Below are positions 23,093 through 60,452 of a DNA stretch of 64,000 bases, piece by piece; within the stretch, counting starts at the first letter, position 1, and each line of letters begins with the position of its first letter. The notes below the pieces were generated by a model. That model was not told where the DNA came from. It did no database searches and saw nothing but the letters and a program-made list of their open reading frames with translations. Made by a program: the position numbers and the translations under genes. Source of the DNA: Candidatus Hodarchaeaceae archaeon (lineage in GTDB: Archaea > Hadarchaeota > Hadarchaeia > Hadarchaeales > Hadarchaeaceae); NCBI GenBank assembly GCA_030018135.1, contig JASEGJ010000001.1:74991-138990 (forward strand), in the 5' to 3' direction.

Positions 23093-23113
23093 CCAATTTT
23101 CGCTCCTTTTTTG

Positions 23114-23962: not shown

Positions 23963-23975
23963 CTTCGCGAGTACA

Positions 23976-24908: not shown

Positions 24909-24941
24909 CTAAATCCCCAGCAACAGCTTTCGGCGGGCAAA

Positions 24942-25478: not shown

Positions 25479-25495
25479 CCTGCTCCTGTCGTCCC

Positions 25496-26215: not shown

Positions 26216-26842
26216 TTAGTCCCTCCGTAACATATTGACCGCCAGGGTGAGGGCGAAAACTATCGCCATCAAAACGACGGCCAGCCCGATGCATAGCAAT
26301 ATCTCACCCCTCGCCGTTTCTAGGGCGATCGTCGTGGTCATGACGCGCGTGTAGCCGTATATGTTCCCACCCACCATCATCGCCACACCCAGTTCGGAAA
26401 TTGCTCGATTGAATGCGGCGACTACCGCCAGTGTGGCGCCTTTCTTCGCCTCCCTTAAAACTGCGAGGGAGGTTTGCCTCTCGGAGGCACCGAGCGTCCG
26501 CGCCAAGTCCTTGATCTCCGGGTCTACGCCCTCCAACGCGCTCGCCATGAAGCTCACGATAATCGGTGTTATCAGGATCGCCTGCCCGATAATCATCGCC
26601 GCTGGAGTGTACAAAAGGCCCAAGGGGCCGAGCGGGCCTTTCCTCGCAAATAACATGAATAGGATGAGGCCAAGCGCCACCGTCGGGATGCCCAAAAGGG
26701 CGTTAAACATCGCCCTCAGTACGCGCCTACCCACGAAGTCCCGCAGGCCGATGACCGCGGCCAACGGCAGCCCCCAGAGTACCGCCAACAAAGTCGCAGT
26801 GCCTGAAATCCAGAGCGATCGAAGGACGATGTCGAGCAACAT
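26216..26842 (-). CDS. ABC transporter permease (TupB-like)
   Basis: about 210 aa 5-6 TM permease with EAA-like loop; start trimmed to internal Met to avoid overlap with binding-protein gene. Confidence 0.7.
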   Translation of the reverse strand: MLLDIVLRSLWISGTATLLAVLWGLPLAAVIGLRDFVGRRVLRAMFNALLGIPTVALGLILFMLFARKGPLGPLGLLYTPAAMIIGQAILITPIIVSFMASALEGVDPEIKDLARTLGASERQTSLAVLREAKKGATLAVVAAFNRAISELGVAMMVGGNIYGYTRVMTTTIALETARGEILLCIGLAVVLMAIVFALTLAVNMLRRD

Positions 26843-26846
26843 CCCC

Positions 26847-27815
26847 TCACCCATAAAGCTCCTCGTGCCCACCCCTGTAGATCGGTGGACATTCGGTATT
26901 TTCAAAAAACGCGTACTCCCTGATCCAGCCAGCGATCTGCGCGTCCGCGTTCTCCTTGAGCAATTTCACGGCAGGGTAAAACAACGGTTGTCCGTATTCG
27001 TCCTTCCCGTAATCGCCGATCATCGCCTGGCCTTCGGCAGACACCAGAAATTTTATAAATGCGATCGCGCCCTCAAAATTCAGTTCGGGGTAAGTTTTTT
27101 GGCTGACCGCCATGACGCTGTAGACATTTAACAGTTCCTTCCCTTGTCCGACGAGGACACGGAGATCGATCAATCCTCGGTTTGTGTACTGGAGATAAGT
27201 GCCAACGTCAGCTAAGGTGTATGCCCTCTTCTCGCTCGCCATCCGGAGCGCCGCACCCATACCCACACCAAGTTCGATATGCCAAGGTTCCCGGCGCAAC
27301 CGGGATACATCGAATCCGGCCGCGGTCCAGAGATCCTTTTCCTTTATGTGGGTGCCGGAGTTGTCGCCGCGGGAGATCCAAGTTGTTAAACCAGCTCTCC
27401 CGGCCTCGGCTATTTTTCTAAGCGCCTCGATCGGCGGCAAGTCCTTAATGCCAACCGGATCTTCAAGGGGACCAGTTATTGCGAAGAAATTGTAAGCTAT
27501 TATTTTTCGAACCATGCCCAAGTTATCCTCCATGAACTGAAATTCCGCAGATGGCGCGTGTACCAGCAAAACATCGGCCTCCCCCATCTTGGCTTGATAG
27601 ATCGCCTGCCCCGTGCCGACTGGGATTAAAAGGATCTTTGTGTTATACTCCTCTTCGTAATATTTTCCGATGAAATCCAGAAGGCCGGTGTCATACAAGC
27701 TTGTTGTAGTTGCAACTTTTAGCTTCGGTTTTCCCCTCTGCCATAGTTCAACGTACCCGACCGCTGCGATGCTGCATAAAACCAACGCTATTGAAACAAA
27801 GGTAATCTTCTTCAT
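26847..27815 (-). CDS. tungstate/molybdate ABC substrate-binding protein (TupA/WtpA type)
   Basis: signal/anchor peptide, VATTTSLYDTGLLDFI motif characteristic of TupA-family oxyanion-binding proteins. Confidence 0.7.
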   Translation of the reverse strand: MKKITFVSIALVLCSIAAVGYVELWQRGKPKLKVATTTSLYDTGLLDFIGKYYEEEYNTKILLIPVGTGQAIYQAKMGEADVLLVHAPSAEFQFMEDNLGMVRKIIAYNFFAITGPLEDPVGIKDLPPIEALRKIAEAGRAGLTTWISRGDNSGTHIKEKDLWTAAGFDVSRLRREPWHIELGVGMGAALRMASEKRAYTLADVGTYLQYTNRGLIDLRVLVGQGKELLNVYSVMAVSQKTYPELNFEGAIAFIKFLVSAEGQAMIGDYGKDEYGQPLFYPAVKLLKENADAQIAGWIREYAFFENTECPPIYRGGHEELYG

Positions 27816-27884
27816 GTTCCCCGATATTTAAATCGTTATGTCTTTATAAGCATAACGATAAACCAGCGCAAATATCCAGATCCC

Positions 27885-28724
27885 CTAAGTCCCGATTCGA
27901 ACCTTTTCGGTTAGATTGCGCAGCATCCTAACCGCGGATAGGGCCGCGAGGTAGCTTGTCCTCGGGTTATCCGGCGAGGGTACGTTTCGCGCCTCCGTGA
28001 CGAACTCTCCCGCTGTGCCCCGAACCCTGACCTCGTGCACGTTGAGCCTTAGCGATGGATCTGCGACTATCCTCACCTTGGTCTTGTCGAATCCGATCCC
28101 CGCCAAGCTCAAGGTCGCCGCGACGTTGACGCTCTCTGGAAATGCCTTGACCGCCTCTCGCGCTGGCCCCTCGAAGACGACCAGCGGCTCCCGTAGGTTG
28201 GTCAGATCCAAGCCGCGCTCCCGCACGTACGGGCTATAAGTCAAGACGGAGGGAGGTTTTCGCGTCGTCAAAATTGCCTCGTTGATGCCCTCGAGCTGTG
28301 CCGCCTTAACGCCGTCTATGCCCAAGATCGCCCCAGAGGGTACGTGGACCGAGCGCCCAGTTCGTTCGGTGACTTCCCGAACGCCCCTGAGCAGTTCTTC
28401 ATCCCCAAATGCGCCAACACTCATCACCATAAGGTCCTTGCCCGACCTTATGACATCGAGCGCATACTGGGCAACCGCCCCCTGCGAGGCCGCCTCGATG
28501 ACCAGATCGACGGACCCATCGGCACATATCTCGGCTAGGCCCTTTGCTATTCTCGGCCTCGAGCGCAACTTTTCGGAAAGTGCCTTAGATTTCTCAGGCT
28601 TCAGGTCGTACAGCCAAGCTAGTTCCACCTCGCCAGCCCTGCCACTGTCGATGGCCCTTGCCAGTACCGTGCCTATCGCGCCGCAACCGATAAGCGCAGC
28701 CCTCAAGCTTAACGCCCAAACCAT
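27885..28724 (-). CDS. nadX: L-aspartate dehydrogenase
   Basis: Rossmann GCGAIG N-terminus, Asp-DH C-terminal domain (TM1643 family); adjacent to nadA/nadC. Confidence 0.75.
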   Translation of the reverse strand: MVWALSLRAALIGCGAIGTVLARAIDSGRAGEVELAWLYDLKPEKSKALSEKLRSRPRIAKGLAEICADGSVDLVIEAASQGAVAQYALDVIRSGKDLMVMSVGAFGDEELLRGVREVTERTGRSVHVPSGAILGIDGVKAAQLEGINEAILTTRKPPSVLTYSPYVRERGLDLTNLREPLVVFEGPAREAVKAFPESVNVAATLSLAGIGFDKTKVRIVADPSLRLNVHEVRVRGTAGEFVTEARNVPSPDNPRTSYLAALSAVRMLRNLTEKVRIGT

Positions 28725-28779
28725 TTTATGAAGCCTAAAAGTTAAGTTAACTTTTCCCTTGTGGTAGCTTTCGGATTCG

Positions 28780-30208
28780 TTACTCAGATGGATTCTCGCC
28801 CTGCTCCATCAACTGTATGTATGGCTTCAACTTCCTCTCCATCAGCCTGATTATAAAGCCCTTTATCAGAAATCCCTGCAGGGGGTTCTTTCTGAAGTGG
28901 TCGCGCGCGAGCTCGGTGACCCACCTGAAATCGTGCTTCATGCACGCCGCGAGCAACATCCAGTGCTCCGGCAGCATGTCCTTCGCCCTAAAAAATCTCT
29001 CCCCTTGCATGGTCCCTATGGGGACAAAAAACAGCGGGACGATCAGGGATTTATATTCCCTGAGGCTTTCCACTAGCTCTATGGTTTCGACTACATCACT
29101 TGCTGTTTCGTCGGGAAACCCCATGATGAGCGTTGAACACGGGACCCAGTGGTTCTCCCTTAGCAATTTATGGGCTTCCAGCACGAGTTCCGGCCATTCC
29201 TGAGGCCTGAAGGGCGCCGCCTTGCCCCGCATGTATTTTTCCGCAATCCTCCGGGATCCCGTCTCTATCCCAACCTGCCCCGAGACCCAAGGTTTCTGCT
29301 TCGAGCCGAGATTCAGCAGCTCGGAGAGGTCCCTTATTAGGTTCGGTTTTGCCATCGCGGAGGCAAAGGCGAAGTGGGAAAAGCTAACATCCTTCTCCAG
29401 CCTTGAGACTCCCGCGAACAATTTTCAGCACCTTCCTTTCATCGGGGATCGCACCCCTAGCCCCATACCTCAGAACATCCTCGGCATGCAGCAATACGCC
29501 GAGTCCAGCAGCGACGTTTACTTTTACTTCTTCCAATATCCTCTCGATCGGCCTACACCTGAAGTTCAATAGCGTCGGGTTGCAGAATTTACAGCCCCTC
29601 CCGCAACCCCTAGCGATCTCGACGAGGCCGTTGATCGTCGGATTCCTTATTGATGGGATTTGGTCCAGGGGAACGACTTCCCCTTGGACGATCCTCGGAA
29701 GCTCGTCGCCGTTTAATGCTTTTTCGAAAACCTTAACCGCGGTTATCTCGCCCTCCCCCACGACGACGCAATCGATGTCAAATTTCGCGATTATCCTCTC
29801 GTCTGCCAGTTGCCAAGCTCCGGGTCCTCCCACAATGACCTTTAATTTATTTTTTCTGATCACCGGATCCGTAATCAACTTCCTGAAATAAATCGCGGAG
29901 TATGTCTCCCTCCCCGTTAAATCGGCGAAAGTGGTGGATGCGGGGCCTAGCCCGAGAGGGTCATTCGTCGTAATGCCAATGGCCTTCGTTTTCCCGTTTA
30001 TGACTTTATCAAGGTGCTCGGGATGCGCGACGGCAACGTCAAAGTCCTTCTCCAATAAGGCTGCCTCTATCTTTCTGGTCCCGGTCGGTGCGCAGGTCGC
30101 CTCCCCATTTTTTTTGAGGAATTGGCGGGCTGAATATGAGCTTGTAAACCCACCCGGGCACGATTTTTGGGGAACAAGCGGCGAAGCCCAAGAACTCGCT
30201 CCCGCCAT
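28780..30208 (-). pseudogene. B12-binding-domain radical SAM protein disrupted by a frameshift (two overlapping ORFs 29384-30208 and 28780-29421)
   Basis: upstream ORF has B12-binding domain + CGRGCKFC (Cx3Cx2C) and stops about 60 aa later; downstream ORF in another frame carries the rest of the radical SAM barrel (GIETGS, IMGFPDET). Confidence 0.55.
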
Positions 30209-30328
30209 AATCAGACAGGAGAGCGCGATCTGCGGTTAAAACTATCTCGGTCACGGTCCCGCCTCTCAAATTTATATGCAAAAAAATTTACATAAGGGCC
30301 CACAGGAAGGGGCATCCTAGAGTTACTC

Positions 30329-30580
30329 ATGAGGACAAGGGAAAAACTTTCGGTTAGCGAAATAACCGCGTGCATCAATAGGTCAGAGAGAGCCGTCAGA
30401 GCCCACCTAAAAAGTCTTTTCAACTTGGGCCTCGTGTGCAGGGAGGGCAGCGCCACTAAGCACGGAAAGATCGCCCATCGATACTTTGTGCCCAAAACCA
30501 AGGACATGATAAAATCTGCGAGGAAGGAGATGCTCAAGCGCCTGCGCAACTTGGAAAAATTGGTGAGGGGCGCGAAGTGA
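30329..30580 (+). CDS. small winged-helix transcriptional regulator
   Basis: 83 aa, HTH-like core (SVSEITACINRSERAVRAHLKSL), divergent from radical SAM gene. Confidence 0.5.
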   Translation: MRTREKLSVSEITACINRSERAVRAHLKSLFNLGLVCREGSATKHGKIAHRYFVPKTKDMIKSARKEMLKRLRNLEKLVRGAK

Positions 30581-30598
30581 GATCAAGAGCGATCAGCT

Positions 30599-32880
30599 AT
30601 GAACCCCATAGACAAAATTGCTAAACTTTGCGAAAGGAGGCCCCATCTCGTCATCGCTACCGTGGCAATTGTCACTTTGCTCCTCCTTCCGGGAATCCCA
30701 AAAATTACCACCGAAACTAAAATGGAAACGTTCATACCCAAAGACTATCCATCGATAATGGCCCTTTCCGATGTGGAGAAAACATTTGGCGGGATGCGAT
30801 ACGAATCCATCTTGGTTGAGACAAAAAATGGCAAGGTAACAGATGCCGGTGCCATAAAATCGCTACTTGGCCTGCAACGAAAAATCCTTGTAGAACCCGC
30901 TTTGAAAGGGTATGCTGTCGAAGTCGAAAGCTATCTAAATTATCTTTTCCCATATATCATGGAAGATAACCAGCTACTGCCCGATGATGAACTTGAGCTG
31001 GCCGTGCAATCCTTTCTTTCCGGGCCGAGCGGCGCAAGTGTGGTCGGTCGATGGATAACCCCAGATCAAAAAATCTGCTTAATGAATGTAAACGTGGGGG
31101 CACACCTAAAATCGCGCGAAGCTGTGGAGAAAACTCAGTATTTTGAGAACTTGGTCAAAAGCTACGCGGCTGAGCATGGGATTTTTGATGCATCTATTAC
31201 GGGCGGGTACTCGACCTCCAGAGATATGCAAAAAATTATCGAAGAGGACAACCGAGTCTTGTTGCCCGCTGCTGTGGCAATGATCATCGCAATTTTGGCG
31301 TTAGCATTTCGTCGCGTTACCGATGTCGTTTTACCGTTTGTAGTCATTGCCCTAGCGGCGATATGAGTCCTCGGTATGATGGGCCATTTAGGCATCGTAT
31401 TCACGACCGTAGCCGTCGCGGTCCTCCCCCTCTTAATGGGGATAAGCATTGCCTACACTATACACATCATCAGCCGCTACAACGAGGAGAGGTCGAATGG
31501 TAAAAATGCGGGCGAGGCCGCCGTATCGAGCATAAAGAACATGGGCACTGCCGTATTCCTAACGGCTGCGACGACCGCCATAGGCTTTGCCTCCTGGCTT
31601 ATCTCGGACCTGCCGCCGCTCCGCGATTTCGGCCTGCTCTGCATGTTGGGTATAATGTTCAGCTTTGCCCTCACCGTAACGCTACTGCCGGCGTTTTTGG
31701 TCATTCGAGACGGGAAAAAAGGGACCAAGAAAACCAAGGGGACGCAAAGGCTGGGCAGGTCGGCGCTGGACAGGGGATTAGTGAGGATCGCGACAATGAC
31801 CAAACTTCACCCCAAGGGGGTTGTCGCAGTAGCTGGCGCGCTCACGGCAGTTGCGCTGGTCCTGACAACTCAAACTACTACTGCCATCTCATTTGAGGAA
31901 CTCCTGCCAAGCGGGGTCGAATCAATCAGGACCAGCGATGAAATCAGGCAAAATTTCGGCGGTCAGGATCTCATCATGGTTCTGGTCAGGGGCGACGCGA
32001 CCGATCCCAAAGTCCTCGAGACGATGGTATGGCTGGAACAGCATGTTCGCTTGGATAACAGAAATGTTAAAGGCGAGAGGGTTTACATAACGCGCGCGTA
32101 CAGCGTTGCCGACATGGTGTTGATGGCCAGCGCAGGCGCCATACCGCGGACCTCGCAGGAGGTGGCAGCGATCCTTGAAAACCTCAGGCACCAAACACCC
32201 CACGTCGACAGGCTCGTGACCTCCGATAATAACAAAACCATCGCGCTGTTCCACTGCGACGCCCGAAGCGATGCGGAGCTTAAGCTCACCGCCGACATCG
32301 TCAGAGATTGGATCGGCCAGTTGCCTGATAACAGAGCCGAATTCGTGGCCACCGGGACGCCAGTCGTGGCCGCGGATCTGCTCTCGAAAATACCGCAGGA
32401 TGCCCTTAACACCACTATGATGGCGCTCGCCCTATGCGCGGTGGTGCTGTGCATCGTGTTTAAGAGCATTGGAATGGGCTTAATTGCCATGGTGCCGATG
32501 GGTTTGGCACTGACGTGGCAGTTCGGCACATTTTACCTGCTCGATGTCCCCCTTAACGTGATCACGGTGCTGATCTCCGCTCTCCTCGTAGGCATCGGCA
32601 TAGACTTCTCAATCCATACTACCCACCGCTATCTGGAGGGGGTGAGAGATCGCCAGCTTAAACCGGAGGGGGCTGTGCACGCTACCGTGCTCCACGTTGG
32701 CAGGGCGCTCCTAGCAGCTGCTGCGACCACCTGCGGTGCCTTCGGTTTGCTTGCGCTCTCGAGGGTGCCAATAATGAGACCTTCGGCAGCATGACAGCGC
32801 TCGCGATACTCTACTGCATGCTCGCGGCGCTGCTGGTTTTGCCCTCGCTACTTGTCGCCTATGCGGGACGGAGGATGGTT
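30599..32880 (+). pseudogene. MMPL/RND-superfamily transporter interrupted by in-frame TGA (31367-31369) and a frameshift near 32780
   Basis: ORFs 30599-31366 and 31376-32794 share one frame and read through TM helices (…VVIALAAI*VLGMMGHLGIVF…); the authentic C-terminal TM helix (FGSMTALAILYCMLAALLVLPSLLVAYAGRRMVN) is encoded in a different frame after 32784. Confidence 0.55.
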
Positions 32881-33338
32881 AACTAATAGAATGGAAGCAA
32901 AGTAATCGGCGATGCTATTAAGAAGATCAAGAGTGCTCCCATAACTACCATGGCCACTCGTATGGACTTTTCTATATTCTTGTTCACTATCCCGCCACAT
33001 ATCAACATGCCAACGAGAAATACTGTGCCCAGATCGCTAAATACCGTGGACGCCTTCCAAGCTGTTTCCCCTGCCCCCAAATAGAGAAATCAACCTGCCT
33101 ATCCATAGCAAAAATATGCCAAATACTGCGCCTACAGCAATGGCTGTTTCAGAGAACGTCGTTGCAACCATCATTGAAATTAGCGAGGGCGCCTGTTGCA
33201 CCTTCGGCTCACGTCTTCTTTCCACATTTTCAACCCCAAGACTTGATACTTAAACAGTAAAAAGATGGGTATAAATCCTTTGGAGCTTCGGACAAGTGCC
33301 CTACGCCTTATCCTTTCGCGAGTTTTCCTGATTTTTAC

Positions 33339-33461
33339 TGGTGGGGTCGCTGGGATTCGAACCCAGGTCCCTGGCTTTTTTGCCCGACCTTGTCCCATTT
33401 GGCAGACCATTGAGAACTTGATCTTAAGCCAGAAGGATAGGCCAAGCTACCCCACGACCCC
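33339..33461 (-). tRNA. tRNA gene with about 45-nt insertion (intron) in anticodon region and encoded CCA; isotype unresolved
   Basis: acceptor GGGGTCG/CGACCCC + A + CCA, D-loop AGCTTGGCCT, T-arm CTGGG-TTCGAAT-CCCAG, anticodon stem CTGGC...GCCAG separated by about 52 nt; no canonical anticodon loop could be assembled by hand. Confidence 0.5.
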
Positions 33462-33492: not shown

Positions 33493-33807
33493 CTATGGGG
33501 GCCTTGAAATCCTCGCCAAGGGGCCACGCTTGTCGGCGCGCTTGAAGCCATAGCGTTCGTACCGAGCGACTCGTCCCTCGAAAACTTCCGCGACGACCTC
33601 GAAGCCCTTGAAATCGACCAAGATTCGTTCGAGGAGGGCGCTTCCTATCCCCCTGCCCCTCTCGCCGTTGCTCACGTTGATGCTGCGCAGTAGCGCGGTC
33701 CCGTTAGGCCGAAGCGCTACGGTGGCACCAGCTATCACTTTGCTACCGTACTCGTCCCATAGGATGTATTGACACATGCCCCCAGAGTCCATGCGCTCAA
33801 TTCGCAT
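33493..33807 (-). CDS. GNAT-family N-acetyltransferase (small)
   Basis: 104 aa; RGRGIGSALL acetyl-CoA binding motif. Confidence 0.65.
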   Translation of the reverse strand: MRIERMDSGGMCQYILWDEYGSKVIAGATVALRPNGTALLRSINVSNGERGRGIGSALLERILVDFKGFEVVAEVFEGRVARYERYGFKRADKRGPLARISRPP

Positions 33808-34817: not shown

Positions 34818-34925
34818 TGGAGCCCCGGGTGGGCTTTGAACCCACGACCTACTGATCGCTTGCCGCCTGGTTACAAGTTTCGACAGCTCACCTTCAGTCG
34901 CTCTACCAGGCTGAGCTACCGGGGC
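34818..34925 (-). tRNA. tRNA gene with about 31-nt insertion in anticodon loop region, encoded CCA; isotype unresolved
   Basis: acceptor GCCCCGG/CCGGGGC + T + CCA, D-arm GCTC-AGCCTGGTA-GAGC, anticodon stem ACTGA...TCAGT, variable AGGTC, T-arm GTGGG-TTCAAAG-CCCAC. Confidence 0.55.
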
Positions 34926-36989: not shown

Positions 36990-37094
36990 AAGCGTGGGTT
37001 GGCGATCACCGCTTAGATCCGATCCCAGTGTGCTTCGATTTGCCCTAGCTCAGAAAATGGATATGCGTGCCATCAAAAGCTCATGAGTCCAATG

Positions 37095-37213
37095 TGCCGG
37101 GGGCGGGACTCGAACCCGCGATCTCAGGATTTCTCACATCATGGTTGATCAGCACTCACAGCCAGTGGTTTGGGCTATGAGTCCTGCGCTTTAACCAGCT
37201 AAGCTACCCCGGC
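37095..37213 (-). tRNA. tRNA-Met(CAT) elongator-type with 46-nt intron at canonical 37/38
   Basis: acceptor GCCGGGG/CCCCGGC, D-arm GCTT-AGCTGGTTA-AAGC, anticodon stem CAGGA/TCCTG, exon loop CTCATA|…|A gives CUCAUAA; intron 3' TGAG pairs with C32-A35 and leaves an AAA bulge (BHB-like). Confidence 0.8.
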
Positions 37214-38235: not shown

Positions 38236-38796
38236 TTGACAATATTTGAAAATGGTGAGGCTGTGAAACGCGTCATACCAGTTAGGGCTGCGATGACCGA
38301 AAAAGTTCTCACGGCTGGCCCTAGGACAACAGTTGCCAAGGCCGCTAAGCTCATGAGCGAGCGCGGCGTCGGTAGCATCATTATCACTCAAGGCAAGAAG
38401 CCGGTGGGCATCCTAACGGAGCGAGACCTGCTCATGAAAGTCGTTTCCGTGGACCTACGACCCAGCAAGGTACTCGTCAGCAAGGTGATGTCGAGTCCGG
38501 TCTTAACTGTCGGTCCCGAGACGGAAGTTGCCGAGGCTGCCCGAGTCATGATCCGCAATAGGATCAGGCGCCTGCCCGTCGTTGACCGCGGGCGCCTCGT
38601 CGGAATCGTAACAGCGAGCGATATCACTGCGATCTCGCCGGAACTTATAGAGGTGTTACCGGAGCGCCCGGAACTGCCACCCCGTGAGGAGATAGATGAG
38701 AGCGTCTGCGAGGTCTGCGGCGAGGTGACCGCCTCACTTCACGAAGTAAATGGCATGTGGGTTTGTGAAAATTGTCGCGACTTTTTGGGCGGGTAG
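38236..38796 (+). CDS. CBS-domain pair protein with C-terminal zinc ribbon
   Basis: two CBS motifs then CEVCGEV…CENC. Confidence 0.7.
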   Translation: MTIFENGEAVKRVIPVRAAMTEKVLTAGPRTTVAKAAKLMSERGVGSIIITQGKKPVGILTERDLLMKVVSVDLRPSKVLVSKVMSSPVLTVGPETEVAEAARVMIRNRIRRLPVVDRGRLVGIVTASDITAISPELIEVLPERPELPPREEIDESVCEVCGEVTASLHEVNGMWVCENCRDFLGG

Positions 38797-38804
38797 ATGA
38801 TGTC

Positions 38805-39620
38805 ATGGCCTGCCGCGATATGCTCATGCGAACTCGCGTTAGCGAAGTGATGCAACCCTGCTCGTGCTTCGTCAGTTCGCGCGACTTGGTGACCAAGGCC
38901 CGCTCACTTATGCGCACCAGCGGCCTTCGAACGTTGCCCGTCGTCGACGATGGCAAGCTGACAGGCATCATAACCGCGCGGCAAATGCTTCGCGTTACCT
39001 CAACCCGCTCAAACATCCCGGTGGCGGGTTTGATGTTCCCCCCTAGGCTTGTGGCTACGCCAGACGACACCATCGGGAAGCTCGTCAAGGATATGATCGA
39101 ACTCGAGATTTCGGCCGTGCCCGTCGTCAAAAGCGTTAGCGACCGAACGATATCCGGCATCGTTGGGCTCGATGACATACTAAGACATATCTCCAAGTCT
39201 TCAAAGCCAAAACTAACGGTGGAGAGAATAATGAAAAGGAAGGTCGCCACATGCACCCCCACGGATGAAATCTCGCGGGTATGGGACATTATGGAGGAAG
39301 CCCACTTCTCCGGCCTGCCTGTCGTGCGTTACGACAAGCGCAAGCGTGCGCTAGAGGTCATAGGCATGATAACCCGCTCGGACATCATTCGCTCGGGAGC
39401 GACGAGGCTGGCCGAGGAGTCCGACAAGGGGCGCTTCCGGAGCCCGCCTCGCGTAAAGAGCCTCATGCGAACCCCCGCTATAACGGCATCCCCTAACATG
39501 TCCCTCTCCGATGCCGTTGAGCTGATGCTGAAGCGCAACATCGGTCGCTTGCCAGTTGTTGAGGACGGCAAGCTAGTTGGGATCGTCAGCCGCGGCGATG
39601 TGATAAAAGCCTGCCTGTAG
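38805..39620 (+). CDS. CBS-domain protein (four CBS repeats)
   Basis: repeated hxxxGhhT/S…RLPVV CBS signatures. Confidence 0.7.
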   Translation: MACRDMLMRTRVSEVMQPCSCFVSSRDLVTKARSLMRTSGLRTLPVVDDGKLTGIITARQMLRVTSTRSNIPVAGLMFPPRLVATPDDTIGKLVKDMIELEISAVPVVKSVSDRTISGIVGLDDILRHISKSSKPKLTVERIMKRKVATCTPTDEISRVWDIMEEAHFSGLPVVRYDKRKRALEVIGMITRSDIIRSGATRLAEESDKGRFRSPPRVKSLMRTPAITASPNMSLSDAVELMLKRNIGRLPVVEDGKLVGIVSRGDVIKACL

Positions 39621-39718
39621 GCGAGCGAATGCGAAGGTTACCCCACGTTGGCTATAAGTCGCGCGACCGGGGCCCGCTGGAGTTCAAATCTAGGCTGAGG
39701 AGGGAGGAGGGCAACATC

Positions 39719-40534
39719 ATGCCGATCGCGCGGCGGAATGTTTTAACCATTCCTCCAACCGTGCGGATAAAAGATGCGGCGGAGTTGATGGTCAAAAATA
39801 AGGTCCGAAGGCTCCCCATAACGGACCCCGGTACGAAACGACTGATCGGCATCGTTACAACGCGCGATATAATAGATTTCCTCGGCGGGGGCGAGCGATC
39901 TAAAATCATCCAAAATAAGTTCAAGGGCAATTTCCTCGCTGCGGTGAACGACCCCATTCGCACGATAATGTCGGAGAAAGTTGTTCATGGAACATTTGAC
40001 ATGTCGATCAAGGATGTTGCAAAGCTTTTGTTGAGAACGGGCGTTGGGGGCGCGCCCATCCTCGACGAACGGGCGCACGTCGTTGGCATGGTATCGGAGC
40101 GAGATTTTGTCCCATACGTACCGATTGCCGCAGGGATTCTAGTGGGCTATCACATGACTCGAAAAGTTGTGACCGCCGAGCCCGAGCTGCAGATCAAAGA
40201 AGCCGCTCGGCGGATGGTTTCCAGGGGCGTACGCCGCCTGCCGGTCGTCTGCGACCGGGAGCTCGTTGGGATCGTCACGAGCGTCGATATCCTCCGGTAC
40301 TTTGGTACGAGCGAGATGTTTGAGCACATGGCCCATGGAAGGGTGGACGAGGCAATGTCGGTTGGGGTCGATAGGATAATGACGAGCAAGGTACTCACGG
40401 TAACGCCGCAAACTGACATAGGCGAGGCGGCTGCGCTGATGGTCGAGCGCGGCTGCGGCGGCTTACCTGTTGTAGAAAGGGATGAACTCGTGGGCATAAT
40501 GACCGAGCGCAACGTGCTGGAGTTGTTAATTTGA
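39719..40534 (+). CDS. CBS-domain protein (four CBS repeats)
   Basis: CBS signatures; start at internal Met MPIARRNV. Confidence 0.7.
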   Translation: MPIARRNVLTIPPTVRIKDAAELMVKNKVRRLPITDPGTKRLIGIVTTRDIIDFLGGGERSKIIQNKFKGNFLAAVNDPIRTIMSEKVVHGTFDMSIKDVAKLLLRTGVGGAPILDERAHVVGMVSERDFVPYVPIAAGILVGYHMTRKVVTAEPELQIKEAARRMVSRGVRRLPVVCDRELVGIVTSVDILRYFGTSEMFEHMAHGRVDEAMSVGVDRIMTSKVLTVTPQTDIGEAAALMVERGCGGLPVVERDELVGIMTERNVLELLI

Positions 40535-41397
40535 AGGTTGTCGACGTTATGAGCTCGCCCGTGGTTGCGATAGGGTCTACGGGGCCAATAGCACATGCAA
40601 AGAACCTGATGTTGCGCCACGACATAAAACGTCTTGTTGTGGTCGAGCGAGGGGGCCCGGTCGGAATAGTTTCAATGAGCGATCTCGCGGAGCGCCTTGA
40701 CAGCGGAACCTCAGCTTGGCGACGACGCCCCATCGATCGCATTCCGATCGCGCGGGTGATGAGCAAAAACTTGATTACGGTGTCACCAGGCACCGATTTG
40801 AGCGAGGCCGCCAGGTTGCTGCTGAAGCACGGCATTAGTAGCTTGGTAATAACCGAGGGCAAAAAACTTATCGGTATCCTGACAAAGACGGATTTGGCGC
40901 GCTTCTTCGCTAAAAATTTGAGAGGTCGAGCGATGGTTCGAGAGCTGATGAGCACAAGTGTAATAACCGTGAACCGTCGACACTCGCTCGCTCACGTCGT
41001 CGAACTCATGGAAAGAAATAACGTGGGTCGTGTGGTGGTCGTGGATGGCGCTAAGCCGATAGGCACAGTGACTGCAAGCGATGTAGCATTCGCGCAGCTC
41101 GAAAGACCAGTCGAGGGCATAGCTCGACGCGAACTCAAATTCACGAGAAAACCTGCGCGAGCCGATAGGCCAAAATATAGATACGTGAAGTATGTCGCCC
41201 TGCTTACCGCTGAGGATATGATGAGGTCTGAGCTGCTCACCGTCGAAGCGGGCGAAGATGCCGCAATGGCGGCTGAGCGAATGCTCAAGTATGGGAAAAG
41301 CGGTCTGCCGGTCGTCGAGCGTGGCGAGTTGGTGGGCATCCTGACGAAGACCGACTTCACTAAAGGAATCGCGAGGCTTGGACGAAATGCGCGTTAG
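40531..41397 (+). CDS. CBS-domain protein (four CBS repeats)
   Basis: CBS signatures; 4-nt overlap with upstream paralog. Confidence 0.7.
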   Translation: MKVVDVMSSPVVAIGSTGPIAHAKNLMLRHDIKRLVVVERGGPVGIVSMSDLAERLDSGTSAWRRRPIDRIPIARVMSKNLITVSPGTDLSEAARLLLKHGISSLVITEGKKLIGILTKTDLARFFAKNLRGRAMVRELMSTSVITVNRRHSLAHVVELMERNNVGRVVVVDGAKPIGTVTASDVAFAQLERPVEGIARRELKFTRKPARADRPKYRYVKYVALLTAEDMMRSELLTVEAGEDAAMAAERMLKYGKSGLPVVERGELVGILTKTDFTKGIARLGRNAR

Positions 41398-42181
41398 TCA
41401 AATAATGACCCCAAATGTCATTACCATAGACAAGGATATATCGCTGGCCGAGGCGATAGGACAAATGCGACGCCACGAGATATCGCGCCTAGTGGTCACG
41501 GATGCTGGAAAGATCGATGGAATCGTCACGGAGCGGGATATTGCTCGAGAATTGGGCTCGACGCGCAGCTACCGTTTGCCCCCTGGTAGGATGCACGTTT
41601 CAAACGTCATGACTGCCAATCCGGTGACGGTCGCACCCGACATCACGGCAAAGCGCGCCGCCGAACTCATGCTCGATAACGACATCAGTGGGTTGCCGGT
41701 AGTTGAGGATGACAAACTGGCCGGCATCGTCACGAAAATGGATTTCGCAAAGGTATGCATGGGTTTTGATGATATTTTCGCGGGGCAGATTATGCAGTCC
41801 AGCCCGCGAACCGCCACGCCAAGCGACCGCGTGATACATGCACGCAGGTTGCTGTTTGAAGAGGACCTAATTAGCCTGCCCGTGGTCGAGGCGGGCGAAC
41901 TCGTGGGCATCGTAACGGTGCGGGATATTGCGATGTGCCTCGCCGCGTTTCAGGAGGTGGTGCCGGACAGGCACAAGAGCGAGCGCATCCGCAATTTGTT
42001 GGTCGAGGACATCATGACCCAGCCGGCGACAACCACGCATACCGACGCAAAGCTTTCCGACATCGCACGCGTCATGTTCGAGCGACGCTTTTCCAGCTTG
42101 CCGGTGCTCAACTTGGAGGACGAGCTCGTCGGTTTGGTCACGAGGACCGAGCTGACCGAGGTCGCGCGGGAGCGCCTTTGA
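41378..42181 (+). CDS. CBS-domain protein (four CBS repeats)
   Basis: CBS signatures; fifth tandem paralog. Confidence 0.7.
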   Translation: MDEMRVSQIMTPNVITIDKDISLAEAIGQMRRHEISRLVVTDAGKIDGIVTERDIARELGSTRSYRLPPGRMHVSNVMTANPVTVAPDITAKRAAELMLDNDISGLPVVEDDKLAGIVTKMDFAKVCMGFDDIFAGQIMQSSPRTATPSDRVIHARRLLFEEDLISLPVVEAGELVGIVTVRDIAMCLAAFQEVVPDRHKSERIRNLLVEDIMTQPATTTHTDAKLSDIARVMFERRFSSLPVLNLEDELVGLVTRTELTEVARERL

Positions 42182-42950: not shown

Positions 42951-43047
42951 GCGGCCGTGGTCCAGCCTGGTTAGGGCGTTAAGCGCCGCCAAAGGACCCA
43001 GGCTCCCCAAGCCTGTGGCGCGGGTTCGAATCCCGCCGGCCGCACCA
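42951..43047 (+). tRNA. tRNA gene with about 20-nt insertion near the D-arm/anticodon-stem junction, encoded CCA; probable Gly(CCC)
   Basis: acceptor GCGGCCG/CGGCCGC + A + CCA; D-stem GTCC with two candidate 3' partners (GGGC before, GGAC after the insertion); anticodon arm CAGGC-TCCCCAA-GCCTG (C at position 33); T-arm GCGGG-TTCGAAT-CCCGC. Confidence 0.55.
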
Positions 43048-43094
43048 CTAACTTTAAATCCAAACCATCAATCAAATGTGGGTAGTGAATTCTG

Positions 43095-44023
43095 ATGAAG
43101 ATGAGCATGCTATTCATGGTAGTACTTCCGCTTGCCATCTTGCCGTGCGTCCTAGCTGGCGTCCAAACTACTGGGGCCTCGTCGGTTGCGCAAGCGGCGG
43201 AGCCAAGCACGGTTAAAGCTGGCGTGTGGGTCATCTCGTTGACCCCGCTGGCGGGACTTTCACGATCGATTTTTACCTCTGGTTCAAGTACGGTGAGATA
43301 GAGCCAAATATCGAGTTTCTAAACGGGTCTCCATCGAGGTTCGAAAAGATAACCGAAAGGGAAAATTACATAGAATACCGCGTCAAGGGCATATTCGTAA
43401 AACCCCTTGATTTTAGGAACTTTCCGTTCGATGAGCACACTTTAACCGTCGAGCTGGAGGACAAGGAGTTCGATGCTTCCGAACTCGTATTTGAACCTGA
43501 TCTGGACGAAAGCGGGATGGACCCAGAATTGGCGATCGTTGGCTGGAGCGCCGAGGATTTTCGGATAAAATAAGAAAGATCACGCGTACCCGGGCGAAAA
43601 TTTCTCCCGGCTTATATTTGGGGTAAGAATTTACCGATCGAAGCTCTCGGCCATGTTCAAGAACTTTCTCCCCATTATCGTCATCACGTTGATATCCCTC
43701 TTGACCTTCGCGATCTCCGTTAAAAACTTCGGGCAGAGGGTTGGTATATGTGTGACGACTTTGATGTCCGCGGTTGCCTATCACCTAGCGGCACTCGGTG
43801 CGCTGCCGCCCTTAGGATACCTCACATTGCTTGATAGGGTCATGCTCGTCGTTTACACCCTGTTCTTGTACAATTTGGCGGTCTCCGTTCAAGCGATGAG
43901 ACTCGTGGAGGGGGAAAGGTGGCGGCGGCTGAAAAGTTTGAAACGAGGATGCAGAACTTCATCCCAGCATTGGTCGCGGTGCTATGTTTGGTTTACATAG
44001 GGTTTATCGGCTTTTTCGCCTGA
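43095..44023 (+). pseudogene. pentameric ligand-gated ion channel (prokaryotic Cys-loop / GLIC-ELIC-like), split over four frames by at least three frameshifts
   Basis: signal peptide (43095-, frame 0); ECD with TFTIDFYLW and Cys-loop-equivalent FPFDEHTL (frame 2, 43226-43573); M1-M3 with PIIVITLISLL and YLTLLDRVMLVVYTLFLYNL (frame 0, 43569-44000); M4 EKFETRMQNFIPALVAVLCLVYIGFIGFFA* (frame 2, ends 44023). Confidence 0.55.
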
Positions 44024-44058
44024 AGTCGTGGGGCTGCATTCTCTTATTGGGTTGCGGC

Positions 44059-44430
44059 TCATCCGCTGCTCAGGAACCTAAACTGGGGCAAGGGGGCCTG
44101 AAAGACGAGCATCTCTACATCCTCTGCCGCAAGGTTAACTGCGGAGTGCGGCACACCCTCGGACGCGACGATGATATCGCCGGGGCCGACCTCAAATTTT
44201 TCCTTGCCAACCGTAAAAGTTGCTCGACCCCTCAGGATGTATATCACATCGTCGGAATTCGAGTGAAGATGTCTTGGGAATTCGTGGCCCGGCAAGATCC
44301 GAAGCAGAGTTAGCTGGCAGTGTTTATTGCCGATTTTCGCTGGATGCACTAGCAAGCGCAGGCGGTTGTCTCCCGCAGCGGTTGTTTCCTCGACTTCATC
44401 TACGACAATCCTGGTCAGATAACCCACCAC
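44059..44430 (-). CDS. cupin-domain protein
   Basis: 123 aa, two-motif cupin pattern (HxH…E and PxG…H region: HLHSNSDDVIYIL…GPGDIIV). Confidence 0.7.
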   Translation of the reverse strand: MVGYLTRIVVDEVEETTAAGDNRLRLLVHPAKIGNKHCQLTLLRILPGHEFPRHLHSNSDDVIYILRGRATFTVGKEKFEVGPGDIIVASEGVPHSAVNLAAEDVEMLVFQAPLPQFRFLSSG

Positions 44431-44587
44431 TAATCAGTTGAGATGGTGGACGAAAAAAAGCTTGCAATCCCCCCCATTGTGTGGCAGACTCGCTCCAAAT
44501 GACTCAATGTCGAGCGCCCCCATGAAGGTTTATGCCGACACCGTTTTCTCTTTATAAAGTGCTTTCGGCCAACGGCCCGGCGGGGTT

Positions 44588-44983
44588 ATGAACGAAAGCG
44601 GCCAACTGATGGGTGTCCCTATAAAGCTCGTGATGGCGCTCGTCATAGGCACCATGACGATGGGCATATTGATGCAGTTTGTCGGCACGGCCGAGCGAAC
44701 TATACTCAGGGACATGAAGGTGACATTTCCTCGCACAACCAGCGACAATCTGACGGTTAAGGTCTTCGATGCCCAAAGCGGGGATGCCTTAGGCGATGCA
44801 ACTATTGTGGTCAAGTACCCCGGAGGCATGAAGGCCCACACTTGCGGCGAGAGCTCAAATCAGAACAGGTTTAGCATACCTATGAATGGCGCCGATTGCG
44901 TCGTCGTGACCGTGCGGGTAACCCGCCACGGCTACATCCCGTGGGAAGGGGAGGTCGCGGTGACGGCAGCCAAGAAGAAGTAG
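44588..44983 (+). CDS. pilin-like protein with class-III-like signal peptide (first gene of putative operon)
   Basis: MNESG/QLMGVPIKLVMALVIGTMTMGIL: short polar N-terminus then about 22 hydrophobic residues; TATA-like TTTATAAAG about 40 bp upstream. Confidence 0.45.
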   Translation: MNESGQLMGVPIKLVMALVIGTMTMGILMQFVGTAERTILRDMKVTFPRTTSDNLTVKVFDAQSGDALGDATIVVKYPGGMKAHTCGESSNQNRFSIPMNGADCVVVTVRVTRHGYIPWEGEVAVTAAKKK

Positions 44984-46298: not shown

Positions 46299-46958
46299 AT
46301 GGACAGACGCGGTCAAGGGCATGTGGTCGACATGTTGGTTTTTGCGTTGATGGTAACTCTCGCGTGCTCGCTCTTAGTTAAGGCAAGCCCGGTTGAGTCT
46401 CGGGCGATAAACGATCGCTACGCCGCCAACCTCGCACAAAGTATATTGTTGACGCTTCAAAACGCGACTGCGGACGAGTTCGGGGGCCTTGAATATTCGC
46501 TTGATCTTCGGACGGCTTGGGGGCCTAGCGAGCGCAAGTTAAAACACAAAACACTGGCACAGCTGTTGGTTGAGGATGCGCTTTGCAACCTGCGCGCAGA
46601 GATCAACGGTCGTGAAGTCGCGGGGCTTAGGTCGAGCCAAGATCTAGACAATAAAGTCCACAAGTTCTTGACTGACGTACTAAGCAAGCTGATCGGCGGG
46701 CGTTTTGACTACAGCTTGACGGCGAGGGCGGAATCCTTAAAAATCTCGTCAACTGTTCGAGTTTATTTTGAGACCTCGATCAAAAGCTTGAGCGGCGAGG
46801 AGCAGCGGCAGCAAATTTGTTCAGAAACGATCGCGATGAGTTTGCCCATCCCCAAGCAGGAGTTAGTTGTGCGCCTCCTGAGCATAAATCCGATCGAGCT
46901 CTTTCAACTTGAGCCGGAAATTGCCGTTGAAATAACTCTCAGCTTGTGGTCGAGATGA
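46299..46958 (+). CDS. pilin-like protein with canonical class-III signal (RRG/Q)
   Basis: MDRRGQGHVVDMLVFALMVTLACSLLV: KR-G-Q followed by hydrophobic stretch, the archetypal prepilin peptidase (PibD/FlaK) substrate pattern. Confidence 0.5.
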   Translation: MDRRGQGHVVDMLVFALMVTLACSLLVKASPVESRAINDRYAANLAQSILLTLQNATADEFGGLEYSLDLRTAWGPSERKLKHKTLAQLLVEDALCNLRAEINGREVAGLRSSQDLDNKVHKFLTDVLSKLIGGRFDYSLTARAESLKISSTVRVYFETSIKSLSGEEQRQQICSETIAMSLPIPKQELVVRLLSINPIELFQLEPEIAVEITLSLWSR

Positions 46959-48214
46959 TGGAAAAGCACGGCTTCATGCCGTTCAGCGCAGCGGGTTTTC
47001 TCATTGTGATGCTAGTTGTCGCGATGATCGGGCGTGCGGCGTGGTCGCAACATCATCAAACCATGAACGCGATCGATGACATCAACAGCATGTCGCTTTT
47101 AACCGTTACCGCGGGCGTTCAAAACGATCTTCGACATGTGGCGCGCTACGCGGTTTACAGGGCGCTCTGGCAGGTCTGCAAGCATGCTGATGACTACAAA
47201 AACGATGAGGCGCGTGTACAAGCGATTGAAAAGCTTGCAGCTGAGTACTTCCTCAAACATGCCGAAGGGCTACCGCAGGCCTACATTAGTGCGCGCGTCA
47301 GGCTTGAGCTTCCCGACGGCCAGCCATCCTTTAATCTGCGGCAGGCAGAAAACGGATATGTGCTCGCCAGGGTTGAATTGCCCGGGCAGGCACGCATAGG
47401 GATCAGTTCCCTCGACAACGGTACCAAGCTCACGCTTTCCTGCACTGGTTTCGAGGTTTGGGTTGATTGCCGCTATTTCCTGTTGCAGGAACGCATGCGC
47501 AAGTTTGTCGATGATATCGATGAAGTTTGCTCAAGTTGGATGCGCGCCGAGTATGCTGCGGCCTGGGGACAGGCGTTGATGGGCCAGGTTTGGCTAAACG
47601 ACAAACGCAGCAGGGCCCTTTTCGAGCTGGCTTGGAAGAATCACGAGCTTAATACCTTTGGGTCGGCCGACTATCTTGAAATGCCCACATCGGCGGAGTT
47701 TAACATGAGCGCACCTTCGGACATCAACTTTAACTCAAACATTGATATCGCGCCGGTGAGCGTTGCCGACGCACAAAGGATAGAGGGCCATATCGACCGC
47801 GCCCTCGCAGCCCTTCGCCGTGCGGAGGTGGGGTTGAAAAATGCCGAGGGATCGATCGAGGTGGCGCTCGACATCGTTCGAAAAAATTCCATTCTGTCAG
47901 AAAACTTGGATGCCAAAAGCGCCATGCTCGGCAACGTGAAAAAGGAGCTAAACAAGGCCATTGAAACGCTAGAAAAGGCTGGGAGCGACGTTCGAGAAGT
48001 TGGCATGGAGTTTGAGCAACTCGTCGCATTCGTAAAAGGTAAGGCCGAGGGTAACCTGTTGATGAAATTGCTCTATCGTGGCTTGACCTCCTCCGACGGC
48101 AACTACCCGCCGCTGGCGCAACGCGTCTCTTTGGGCCTTGCGGGGGTTGAGGACAAATTAATGGGACTGTCGGTGGCAAATGAACAATATGCAGAAGCTC
48201 AGCGCATCGGATAA
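46946..48214 (+). CDS. large (422 aa) pilin-like / pilus-associated protein with class-III-like N-terminus and C-terminal coiled coil
   Basis: …EKHG/FMPFSAAGFLIVMLVVAMIG then about 390 aa soluble region ending in heptad-rich segment. Confidence 0.4.
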   Translation: MVEMMEKHGFMPFSAAGFLIVMLVVAMIGRAAWSQHHQTMNAIDDINSMSLLTVTAGVQNDLRHVARYAVYRALWQVCKHADDYKNDEARVQAIEKLAAEYFLKHAEGLPQAYISARVRLELPDGQPSFNLRQAENGYVLARVELPGQARIGISSLDNGTKLTLSCTGFEVWVDCRYFLLQERMRKFVDDIDEVCSSWMRAEYAAAWGQALMGQVWLNDKRSRALFELAWKNHELNTFGSADYLEMPTSAEFNMSAPSDINFNSNIDIAPVSVADAQRIEGHIDRALAALRRAEVGLKNAEGSIEVALDIVRKNSILSENLDAKSAMLGNVKKELNKAIETLEKAGSDVREVGMEFEQLVAFVKGKAEGNLLMKLLYRGLTSSDGNYPPLAQRVSLGLAGVEDKLMGLSVANEQYAEAQRIG

Positions 48215-48986
48215 CTTGGGCTCGCTCGAAGACCACCTCGTCGAGCTTCACGAGGACGTCAAATTTCAAGTGTGGAGCTTGCTGGTCTCGCCCTCGCCAA
48301 AATACTGCGAGGAATATCAAGAATACCCTGACCCAGAAGTTTACAACTATGAAAGGGATGGTCCATCGTCGATCGTCCGAAGCGCCAATGTTTACATCCT
48401 CAGCGAGCCGGATGGTACGATAAGCGCATTAAGAGCAACCTTGTTGGATACAAGGAACAATTTGGAAAAAGTGGAAAGCGTAGCTAAAAACCTCGAACGA
48501 AAGCAAGAGGACTTTAAAGGCGCAGAGATAAGCGAGGAGTTAAGACAATCCCCCGTGGGTTCAGACCCAAGGTTCCTCGATGGGCTCGACCGCGAGTGGG
48601 TGTACGAAACCATACCGCCGCCCCCGATTCGAAAACAACCCGGGCTTTCGGTGTTTCATGATTTTAGCATCAAAGAAGTAAGATACGAAAGAAGGGACCC
48701 GCTGGGTTGGCTCGATGCGGGCGCGCCACCGACGCCGATACCCCTTTGGTTTATAGGCGTGACCCTGTACTGGGCACAGTGGGAGGTTACGCTCGAGCTA
48801 GAGGACAAGCCTGTCGAGGAGATATTTGACTTCGAAAATCCAGTGCTGCCCAGGTCGCTGCTTGAAGGGTCCAACGGTTTAACAATCGTTCATAAGCCGT
48901 TGGGGTACCGCTTTGAGGTGCCCCGCGAGCGGTTCAGCTTTACCTTGTTGATCGTCAGCCCGACGCCATTTGAAATCGATGCCTAA
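48180..48986 (+). CDS. hypothetical soluble protein, last gene of pilin-like operon
   Basis: 268 aa, no N-terminal TM; overlaps upstream gene by 35 nt. Confidence 0.35.
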   Translation: MNNMQKLSASDNLGSLEDHLVELHEDVKFQVWSLLVSPSPKYCEEYQEYPDPEVYNYERDGPSSIVRSANVYILSEPDGTISALRATLLDTRNNLEKVESVAKNLERKQEDFKGAEISEELRQSPVGSDPRFLDGLDREWVYETIPPPPIRKQPGLSVFHDFSIKEVRYERRDPLGWLDAGAPPTPIPLWFIGVTLYWAQWEVTLELEDKPVEEIFDFENPVLPRSLLEGSNGLTIVHKPLGYRFEVPRERFSFTLLIVSPTPFEIDA

Positions 48987-49011: not shown

Positions 49012-49470
49012 TCAGAAGCCGGTTGCCCGCTTTCTACTACGGGCTTTTGTCTCAACCTGAACCATAAGCGCCTGGAGCTCCACGACACGTTCGTTGAGCT
49101 TTTCGAGTTCGTTTCCGACGAGTTGCAGTTCCCGCGAAAGCGCATCGATCCGGGCGAGCAGCGCAAAACGTGCGTCATCAAGCGCTTCTCTGAAGATTTC
49201 CCTAACTTCGGCTCCCAACCGTGATGTTCGCGGCTCAAGCTTGGCCTCTTGAAATTCGGCCGAAACGCGATCGATGAGCAAGTGAACCTGCTCGCCGGGC
49301 AGGCCTATGCCGGTCAGCGTGTCATATACCTCATCGTCGGCGAAGCCCAAGCGTTTCATGGACCTGATTACGTCCGAAGCTGCTACACCGCCATTTGATT
49401 TTGGCACACTTCCCGTTGAGCCTTTAGTCTGGAAAGGTTTAAAAACGGAAAACTTGCGGCGAGGCAACAA
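49012..49470 (-). CDS. hypothetical coiled-coil protein (convergent to pilin-like operon)
   Basis: 152 aa, C-terminal heptad-rich segment (LSRELQLVGNELEKLNERVVELQALMVQVE). Confidence 0.3.
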   Translation of the reverse strand: MLPRRKFSVFKPFQTKGSTGSVPKSNGGVAASDVIRSMKRLGFADDEVYDTLTGIGLPGEQVHLLIDRVSAEFQEAKLEPRTSRLGAEVREIFREALDDARFALLARIDALSRELQLVGNELEKLNERVVELQALMVQVETKARSRKRATGF

Positions 49471-59831: not shown

Positions 59832-59963
59832 ATTATTGCCTCAGACCTGGGTTATCCTACATCCCATTTCTCGGTTTTCTTTGCGCTCAAAGCACTGCTC
59901 ACGATAAACACCGGCGTGATTAAGCATTTTAACTCTAGATGCAAGCTGAATAGTGGTAAGACC

Positions 59964-60452
59964 ATGAGCAAGAAAGCTAAGCGAAGTCAAGCAGCCCGAC
60001 TGGCACCGATGCCCAAGAAACTTCTGATGAAAATGAAGGTTAAGGATGTCATGAATCCCAGGCCTAGGTCGATCTCCCCAGAAGCCTCGATAGATGACAT
60101 GATAGAGCGGCTTCGACAGCAAATAGAGGACTGCTTCCCGGTCGTCGATAAAGGGGGCAAGCTTGTCGGCATCATCACGGAGAGCGATATCTTGGGCGCC
60201 CTGCAGACTCCCGCGCGCCAAGCGACGGTCGGCGGCGCGATGGTTAGAAATGTAATGAAGCGCATGGCGAGCAACGTCGGCGAGATGATGACCAAGTACC
60301 CGATCACCGCAACACCGGAGATGACCATCCAGGAAACCCTAGACGTAATGGTGGCCCACAAGCTTCGCCACCTGCCAGTCGTCAAGGGCGAAAAATTGGT
60401 AGGACTGATCTGCATACGGGACATTTTGAACATATATCACTTAGTTAGGTAG
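59964..60452 (+). CDS. CBS-domain pair protein with Lys-rich N-terminal tail
   Basis: two CBS motifs; several possible Met starts (59964/60009/60033). Confidence 0.7.
   Translation: MSKKAKRSQAARLAPMPKKLLMKMKVKDVMNPRPRSISPEASIDDMIERLRQQIEDCFPVVDKGGKLVGIITESDILGALQTPARQATVGGAMVRNVMKRMASNVGEMMTKYPITATPEMTIQETLDVMVAHKLRHLPVVKGEKLVGLICIRDILNIYHLVR

Follow-up and report, generated by a model that had tools for sequence, protein, structure and literature searches.

A probable pseudogene of a GLIC-like pentameric ligand-gated ion channel in a Hadarchaeales archaeon

[quoted passage not shown] In that work, the proline of the Pro-loop ('Cys-loop') is the only absolutely conserved pLGIC residue, and the patchy distribution of the channels in prokaryotes is read as the outcome of frequent loss and lateral transfer, with a high rate of loss inferred for unicellular taxa; the word 'pseudogene' does not occur in it. 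The best PDB matches of the archaeal subfamily described here are GLIC, the proton-gated channel of Gloeobacter violaceus (Glr4197; PDB 3eam, 4hfi), and its chimeras; PDB searches found no solved structure for any member of the subfamily.

The locus lies in a 64,000-nucleotide stretch of DNA (the window, meaning the whole stretch that was analysed), which is part of a 142,297-bp contig of a metagenome-assembled genome (MAG) in NCBI (proteins MDI68194xx, locus tags QMC89_007xx-008xx). All parts of one pLGIC subunit are found on the plus strand between positions 43095 and 44023, in reading frames that alternate 0/2/0/2 and yield four overlapping or adjacent open reading frame (ORF) pieces. A preliminary description made from the sequence had proposed a pLGIC broken by frameshifts, and the four pieces and the strings quoted from them are all present in the frames given there:

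43095-43301, plus strand, frame 0: ORF piece 1, beginning MKMSMLFMVVLPLAILPCVLAG, with the signal peptide and reaching VKAGVWVIS
43226-43573, plus strand, frame 2: ORF piece 2, with TFTIDFYLW and FPFDEHTL, and containing TFTIDFYLWFKY and FPFDEHTLTVELEDK
43653-44000, plus strand, frame 0: ORF piece 3, open from 43574 with its first ATG at 43653, with PIIVITL and YLTLLDRVMLVVYTLFLY, and also FKNFLPIIVITLISLL, GQRVGICVTTLMSAVAYHLAAL and YLTLLDRVMLVVYTLFLYNL
43919-44023, plus strand, frame 2: ORF piece 4, ending FIPALVAVLCLVYIGFIGFFA and then a stop codon

The native parts of the subunit occupy four segments:

43095-43237, plus strand, frame 0: segment 1, the start codon, signal peptide and start of strand β1 (VKAGVWVIS), aligning with the N-termini of intact homologs
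43238-43566, plus strand, frame 2: segment 2, the extracellular β-sandwich, with the Pro-loop FPFDEH at 43421-43438 and its proline codon at 43424-43426
43574-43912, plus strand, frame 0: segment 3, the pre-M1 region and helices M1, M2 and M3, with the M1 proline codon at 43671-43673
43913-44023, plus strand, frame 2: segment 4, the M3–M4 loop, helix M4 and the original stop codon (TGA, 44021-44023)

Segment 3 includes the pore-lining M2 helix, GQRVGICVTTLMSAVAYHLAAL, and scores 22.8 bits against the Pfam model Neur_chan_memb. The amino-acid sequence of segment 4 is identical to that of the copy in a sister strain (P0005). Joined from its frame pieces, the reconstructed channel protein is 309 residues long, and tblastn found no second channel copy in the window. 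We consider it very probable that the locus is a true pseudogene of a GLIC-like pLGIC (Pro-loop receptor) subunit, inactivated recently, in a Hadarchaeales archaeon from a hot spring.

Membership of the gene in the pLGIC superfamily is secure despite missed Pfam cut-offs. In a phmmer search of the PDB, the reconstructed protein matches GLIC chains (E = 1e-18 to 1e-20) in a single alignment over residues 96-306, which spans the second and third shift sites unbroken; the resemblance lies far outside what chance would produce. A family profile (A3) built from 57 intact members matches GLIC over residues 13-310 of 317 (E = 2e-29). The AlphaFold (AF2) model of P0002, an intact ortholog 78% identical to the window protein, has a mean pLDDT of 90.8 and comprises an N-terminal signal helix, a β-sandwich (strands at 38-183) and four long helices (186-209, 215-237, 248-275 and 279-311). 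Foldseek aligns this model with GLIC over ~306 columns (TM 0.77, E = 1e-22), the next structural matches after the GLIC chains being GABA-A and glycine receptors. The homology put forward in the preliminary description thus holds both by sequence and by fold. The GLIC alignment bears out its assignments of FPFDEHTL as the Cys-loop equivalent and of PIIVITL as the site of the M1 proline: the FPFD proline falls on the Pro-loop proline of GLIC (YPFD) and is invariant in alignments A1 and A3, and the LPIIV proline falls on the GLIC M1 proline and is invariant in the family alignments. The Pfam check proposed with that homology was weakly positive, as both domains were hit on the window sequence but below the gathering cut-offs (PF02932, Neur_chan_memb, 17.4-22.8 bits against 28.1; PF02931, Neur_chan_LBD, 10.9-12.2 bits against 26). 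This shortfall arises because the eukaryote-centred models diverge and not because the domains are absent, and precomputed PF02931 or PF02932 hits are present in many of the intact homologs. As the Pfam hits were all sub-threshold, we relied on the PDB sequence, profile and fold searches.

GLIC and the window family belong to the same ~310-residue length class. Both combine a β-sandwich with four transmembrane (TM) helices and a very short M3–M4 loop, both are without the Cys-loop cysteines, and both have the Pro-loop (Y/F)PFD motif and the M1 proline. The two share only ~19% identity; the window family is archaeal and the window copy non-functional. They differ as well at the intracellular mouth of M2, where the window family has G(-2′), Q(-1′) and R(0′) in place of the E-A-N of GLIC; the family has Met at 9′. 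Since the charge-selectivity glutamate of GLIC at -2′ is absent, the selectivity and gating stimulus of GLIC are not transferable to the family; the G-Q-R mouth would suggest a cation selectivity weaker than that of GLIC. Intact orthologs, ~310 residues long, have a signal peptide, an extracellular β-sandwich, four TM helices and a short prokaryote-type M3–M4 loop. By homology with GLIC and ELIC, they would form a homopentamer with a pore that is lined by the M2 helices and opens in response to a stimulus from outside the cell. Like the archaeal receptors catalogued in 2016 (PMC4795631), the window subfamily consists of Cys-less prokaryotic pLGICs and has members in Nitrososphaeria; its members in Hadarchaeales and Bathyarchaeia are MAG-derived, and their records appear mostly to be later than that survey.

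A search of 5.8 billion cluster representatives with the joined protein returned 168 homologs, most of them intact and 303-320 residues long. Identities are 60-80% in Hadarchaeales and Hadarchaeum, ~50% in Nitrososphaeria and 43-47% in Bathyarchaeia. P0001 and P0002 are 78-80% identical to the window protein, and the Hadarchaeum proteins 63-65%. Examples of intact orthologs are P0002 itself (locus L005, JZ-2_201705_bins_157) and P0027 from Candidatus Hadarchaeum yellowstonense, the UniRef name of which begins 'Neurotrans...'. These genes are single continuous ORFs of 303-320 residues, whereas the window copy has three frame-breaking indels. The preliminary description had suggested a search for intact orthologs: the channel is one continuous ORF in 17 of the 18 loci found among GTDB species representatives, the closest of which is 79% identical to the window. 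The same description had called pLGICs sporadic in archaea, a statement that needs qualifying for this subfamily, which is common in MAGs of Hadarchaeales, Bathyarchaeia and thermophilic Nitrososphaeria. It is a strongly conserved, uncharacterised GLIC-like subfamily of thermophilic archaea, and the intact orthologs are the copies worth expressing.

One of the records is misnamed and overlong. The JGI protein P0001 (L002:766-1872, 368 residues) is called 'stress response protein SCP2', a name unrelated to its fold, and its start is placed too far upstream, so that its first ~55 residues are a translated tRNA gene; the real channel ORF has ~310 residues.

The lesions in the window copy were placed by a three-way DNA alignment with two syntenic relatives, together with a gap census. 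One relative (L001, contig SRR16588181_114119 of the Logan assembly of SRR16588181) encodes a channel protein 94% identical to that of the window, and the other (L002, a JGI metagenome contig) one that is 80% identical. Three lesions break the frame:

junction 43237/43238, plus strand: lesion 1, a 10-bp deletion in strand β1, by which the I-E-K codons are lost and the frame shifts by -1
43567-43573, plus strand: lesion 2, a 1-nt insertion that lengthens the A-run 43567-43570 and brings a TAA into frame at 43571-43573
43910-43914, plus strand: lesion 3, a 1-nt deletion in or beside a G-run (GGGGG) in the short, three-residue M3–M4 loop, which puts M4 out of frame

By this alignment, the earlier estimate of at least three frameshifts was exactly right. 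The first shift had been bracketed to 43217-43301, and its site does lie in that interval, although the event is a 10-bp deletion and not a single-base change. The second, predicted near 43570 at a homopolymer, is the +1 in AAAA at 43567-43570. The third frame change also exists, but the G-run in which it occurs lies ~20 nt upstream of the predicted position near 43930.

At lesion 1, the relatives read GATCGAAAAA or GGTTGAAAAG (context TCTC-GATCGAAAAA-GTTGACC), and E50 and K51, like D53 after them, hardly vary across the family. Past the deletion, the native frame stops at 43299-43301. The native start thus gives a peptide of only 68 residues, and therefore no channel can be made. Lesion 2, located on the ortholog model, lies in strand β9 directly before an invariant His. 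A fourth indel, an in-frame 3-nt insertion in the signal peptide at ~43118-43121, is harmless. No uninterrupted frame covers all domains in the window copy, and among ~20 relatives none has a shift at the lesion positions. In this genome the gene carries three independent small mutations, each frame-breaking: the 10-bp deletion, the +1 in the A-run and the -1 in the G-run. An annotation of the locus should join the two or three fragments now called 'hypothetical protein' into one pseudogene.

The position of the gene is anchored by a tRNA gene:

42951-43047, plus strand: intron-containing tRNA gene directly upstream of the channel (Rfam tRNA, 52.9 bits), the synteny anchor

ARAGORN with introns allowed reads this gene as Gly(CCC) with a 19-nt intron, and the same tRNA precedes the intact channel orthologs in L002 and L005, which share the locus structure of the window. 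Five CBS-domain genes are followed by a CPBP (Rce1-like) protease, the intron-containing tRNA and the channel, after which come a cupin encoded on the other strand and a pilin-like operon. Of these, the CBS genes, CPBP protease, tRNA, channel and pilin-like operon form a block that is common to L001, L002 and L005 and is not found in more distant Hadarchaeales. Because relatives with intact genes share this block, the broken copy is their positional ortholog. The preliminary description had also taken the host to be archaeal, which is borne out by relatives that are Hadarchaeales MAGs and by the archaeal-type genes in the window (EF-1α, split RNA polymerase subunits, L7Ae and intron-containing tRNAs). 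The NCBI label, 'Candidatus Hodarchaeaceae archaeon', denotes an Asgard family in the NCBI taxonomy. As close relatives of the channel and of the neighbouring genes are all Hadarchaeales or Hadarchaeum, this label is likely a mix-up of Had- and Hod-.

How long ago the gene was lost can be gauged from the sister copy. Between the window and L001, dS is 0.21 and dN/dS 0.17-0.23, and neighbouring genes range from 0.05 to 0.35. The channel lies within the range of its neighbours, so the substitutions give no independent sign of relaxed constraint or decay. Over the 124 codons of the TM domain, 1 nonsynonymous and ~17 synonymous differences separate the two copies, pointing to strong purifying selection during nearly all of the time since the strains split and hence to a recent origin of the three indels. 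On this substitution pattern, the inactivation looks very recent. The view that the copy is decaying is therefore right as far as the frame-breaking lesions go, with the qualification that purifying selection kept acting on the gene until a very short time ago. Three indels beside so few nonsynonymous changes make the ratio of indels to substitutions somewhat high. These estimates are confined to the L001 comparison; dN/dS against L002 and L005 was tried as a test of selection and rejected, as synonymous sites have reached saturation in these comparisons (dS 1.76 or not computable).

Whether the lesions are real, and whether they represent the population, was assessed with an independent assembly. 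Logan contig SRR23186779_21728 is 100% identical to the window over 1925 bp (window 43019-44943), with all three lesions included, and the same two 115-aa fragments result when its genes are called. A second SRR23186779 contig is 100% identical over 11,351 bp (window 22100-33450). The Logan contig, although separately assembled, probably shares its reads with the MAG, so that an error repeated throughout the reads at the two homopolymers has a small probability, and a slight doubt attaches to the two single-base lesion sites.

MAG consensus sequences merge strains, and the broken copy could be real but a minority or polymorphic allele, with an intact allele coexisting in the population and the channel retained. 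The ends of the 1925-bp Logan contig, one inside the tRNA gene and the other in the next operon, could reflect strain variation of this kind. Searches for an intact allele make it quite improbable: no intact protein more than 94% identical was found among the 5.8 billion cluster representatives, and exact look-ups of both 115-aa fragments return the broken contig only.

It is likewise very unlikely that the channel gene is truly one continuous ORF and that its indels are consensus errors of sequencing or assembly. Two of the three lesions do lie in short homopolymers (A4 and G5), as several lesions of a broken radical-SAM gene lie in A-runs (A8 and A4). Lesion 1, however, is a 10-bp deletion, unlike a homopolymer-type read error; the Logan assembly repeats 13.3 kb of the window at 100% identity with all lesions included; and another broken gene has a substitution (an in-frame TGA) and not an indel. 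The distribution of the indels also argues against error. In a census against sister-strain DNA (L001, L024 and L026; ~9 kb of coding sequence at 90-93% identity), out-of-frame coding indels were found in the channel (three), the radical-SAM gene (three) and a 676-aa gene of the pilin-like operon (one) and in no other gene, all other aligned genes having only in-frame or locally compensated indels. The other ORFs of the window, including those of 1103, 881, 566 and 530 residues, are full length and tile well, with ~60 intact, and those with a known Pfam family cover nearly the whole profile. Compared with L002, twelve downstream genes are collinear and unbroken, except for the 676-aa gene. With eight disrupting lesions scattered uniformly across ~58 kb of coding DNA, the probability of at least three in one 0.93-kb gene would be ~2e-4. 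With frame-breaking indels concentrated in three genes and ~60 ORFs unbroken, random sequencing error is unlikely: genes hit several times amid intact neighbours are the signature of pseudogenes and not of random consensus error.

Slippage at A-runs rescues frameshifted genes in some bacteria, but programmed recoding (ribosomal frameshifting or transcriptional slippage restoring the frame), or separate action of the fragments as a functional split gene, is hardly credible here, given that three events of different kinds would all need rescue, that slippage cannot mend a 10-bp deletion of nearly invariant β1 residues, that the runs are merely 4-5 nt long, that ~20 relatives are without these shifts, and that a pLGIC subunit requires its extracellular domain, M1–M3 and M4 to be covalently continuous.

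Inactivation of the channel has further instances within the family:

L001:57-1010, contig SRR16588181_114119: sister channel gene, 94% identical to the window copy, in which an independent nonsense change turns TAC into TAA at the ENY motif; otherwise in frame
L022:1376-2330, contig JACIWG010000008.1: homolog in Nitrososphaeria archaeon MAG-19, with two frameshifts and one in-frame stop

As a consequence of its TAA, the sister gene is called as two pieces of 99 and 217 residues; the metagenome of its run, SRR16588181, comes from a hot spring in Tuwa (PMC10787698). A search of papers for the run accessions found this one and not SRR23186779. The MAG-19 homolog, the one interrupted gene among the 18 loci of GTDB representatives, is an independent multi-hit pseudogene in another archaeal phylum. 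The three decaying copies (window, L001 and MAG-19) show the process of pLGIC loss directly, giving a base-level snapshot of the disappearance that has been invoked for the patchy prokaryotic distribution. The channel family itself is known and is flagged by automated annotation in relatives, its occurrence in archaea is in principle not new, and pseudogenes are commonplace; the window case is thus an ordinary example of a gene loss already known for pLGICs in microbes. Mildly new are the base-level record of archaeal pLGIC genes in decay, in three independent cases, the breadth of the thermophile GLIC-like subfamily and the presence of several fresh pseudogenes within 64 kb in one strain.

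At least four genes of the window (the pLGIC, the radical-SAM enzyme, an MMPL transporter and the 676-aa pilus-operon protein) carry eight disrupting lesions in 64 kb. Several of these lie at mononucleotide runs, and they are absent or different in the sister strain used for comparison, which is ~92% identical and comes from another hot spring. The loss of the channel fits a broader picture, in which the channel is dispensable and is repeatedly being lost in its family and the strain carries several other freshly broken genes. A more speculative possibility, which we hold only tentatively, is that the channel was lost in a recent wave of gene inactivation in this strain, as might happen if a free-living thermophilic archaeon had passed through a bottleneck or were prone to slippage (mutator-like) and its genome were eroding. 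If this were so, the pLGIC would be a sensor that can be dispensed with time and again, given its independent loss in three lineages.

The radical-SAM gene (28780-30250, minus strand) has three 1-nt indels relative to an intact 534-aa sister gene (L024): a +1 in an A8 run near 30108, a +1 in an A4 run near 29422 and a -1 near 28790, along with a compensated pair near 29100. Its remains appear in NCBI as two hypothetical proteins, MDI6819420.1 and MDI6819421.1. The MMPL/RND-type transporter (30599-32794, plus strand) has a continuous MMPL/sterol-sensing TM domain interrupted by a single in-frame TGA at 31364-31366 (ALAAI-stop-VLGMMGHLG), probably a TGG-to-TGA nonsense mutation. This TGA is present in the Logan assembly too, and the site lies outside the coverage of the sister sequence.

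The pilin-like operon protein is a single ORF of 676 residues in the sister (L026/P0142) and of 642 residues in L002. In the window it is split into pieces of 419 and 268 residues (46955-48214 and 48180-48986, plus strand; QMC89_00865 and QMC89_00870) by a 1-nt insertion (T) near 48170, which is not in a homopolymer. The ORF of a small gene at 49012-49470 (minus strand) has 152 residues in the window, 129 in sister L026 and 124 in L002, with several 1-nt indels near both ends relative to the sister. Only residues 1-89 of the L002 protein align with its product. This gene, too, may be degraded. Truncation was suspected for the GNAT gene at 33493-33807 and rejected, as the gene reads as a plausible short complete ORF.

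Four intron-containing tRNAs were found by Rfam, at 33339-33461, 34818-34925 and 37094-37213 on the minus strand and at 42951-43047 on the plus strand. Default ARAGORN missed or mis-called them, and the isotypes that it gives with introns allowed (Phe, Ala, Ser and Gly) have odd anticodons and are unreliable. The tandem CBS array (38236-42181, plus strand) consists of five genes directly 5′ of the CPBP–tRNA–channel block, four of which have four CBS repeats each. A further CBS gene (59916-60452, plus strand) lies beside a Na+/H+ exchanger (60461-61666).
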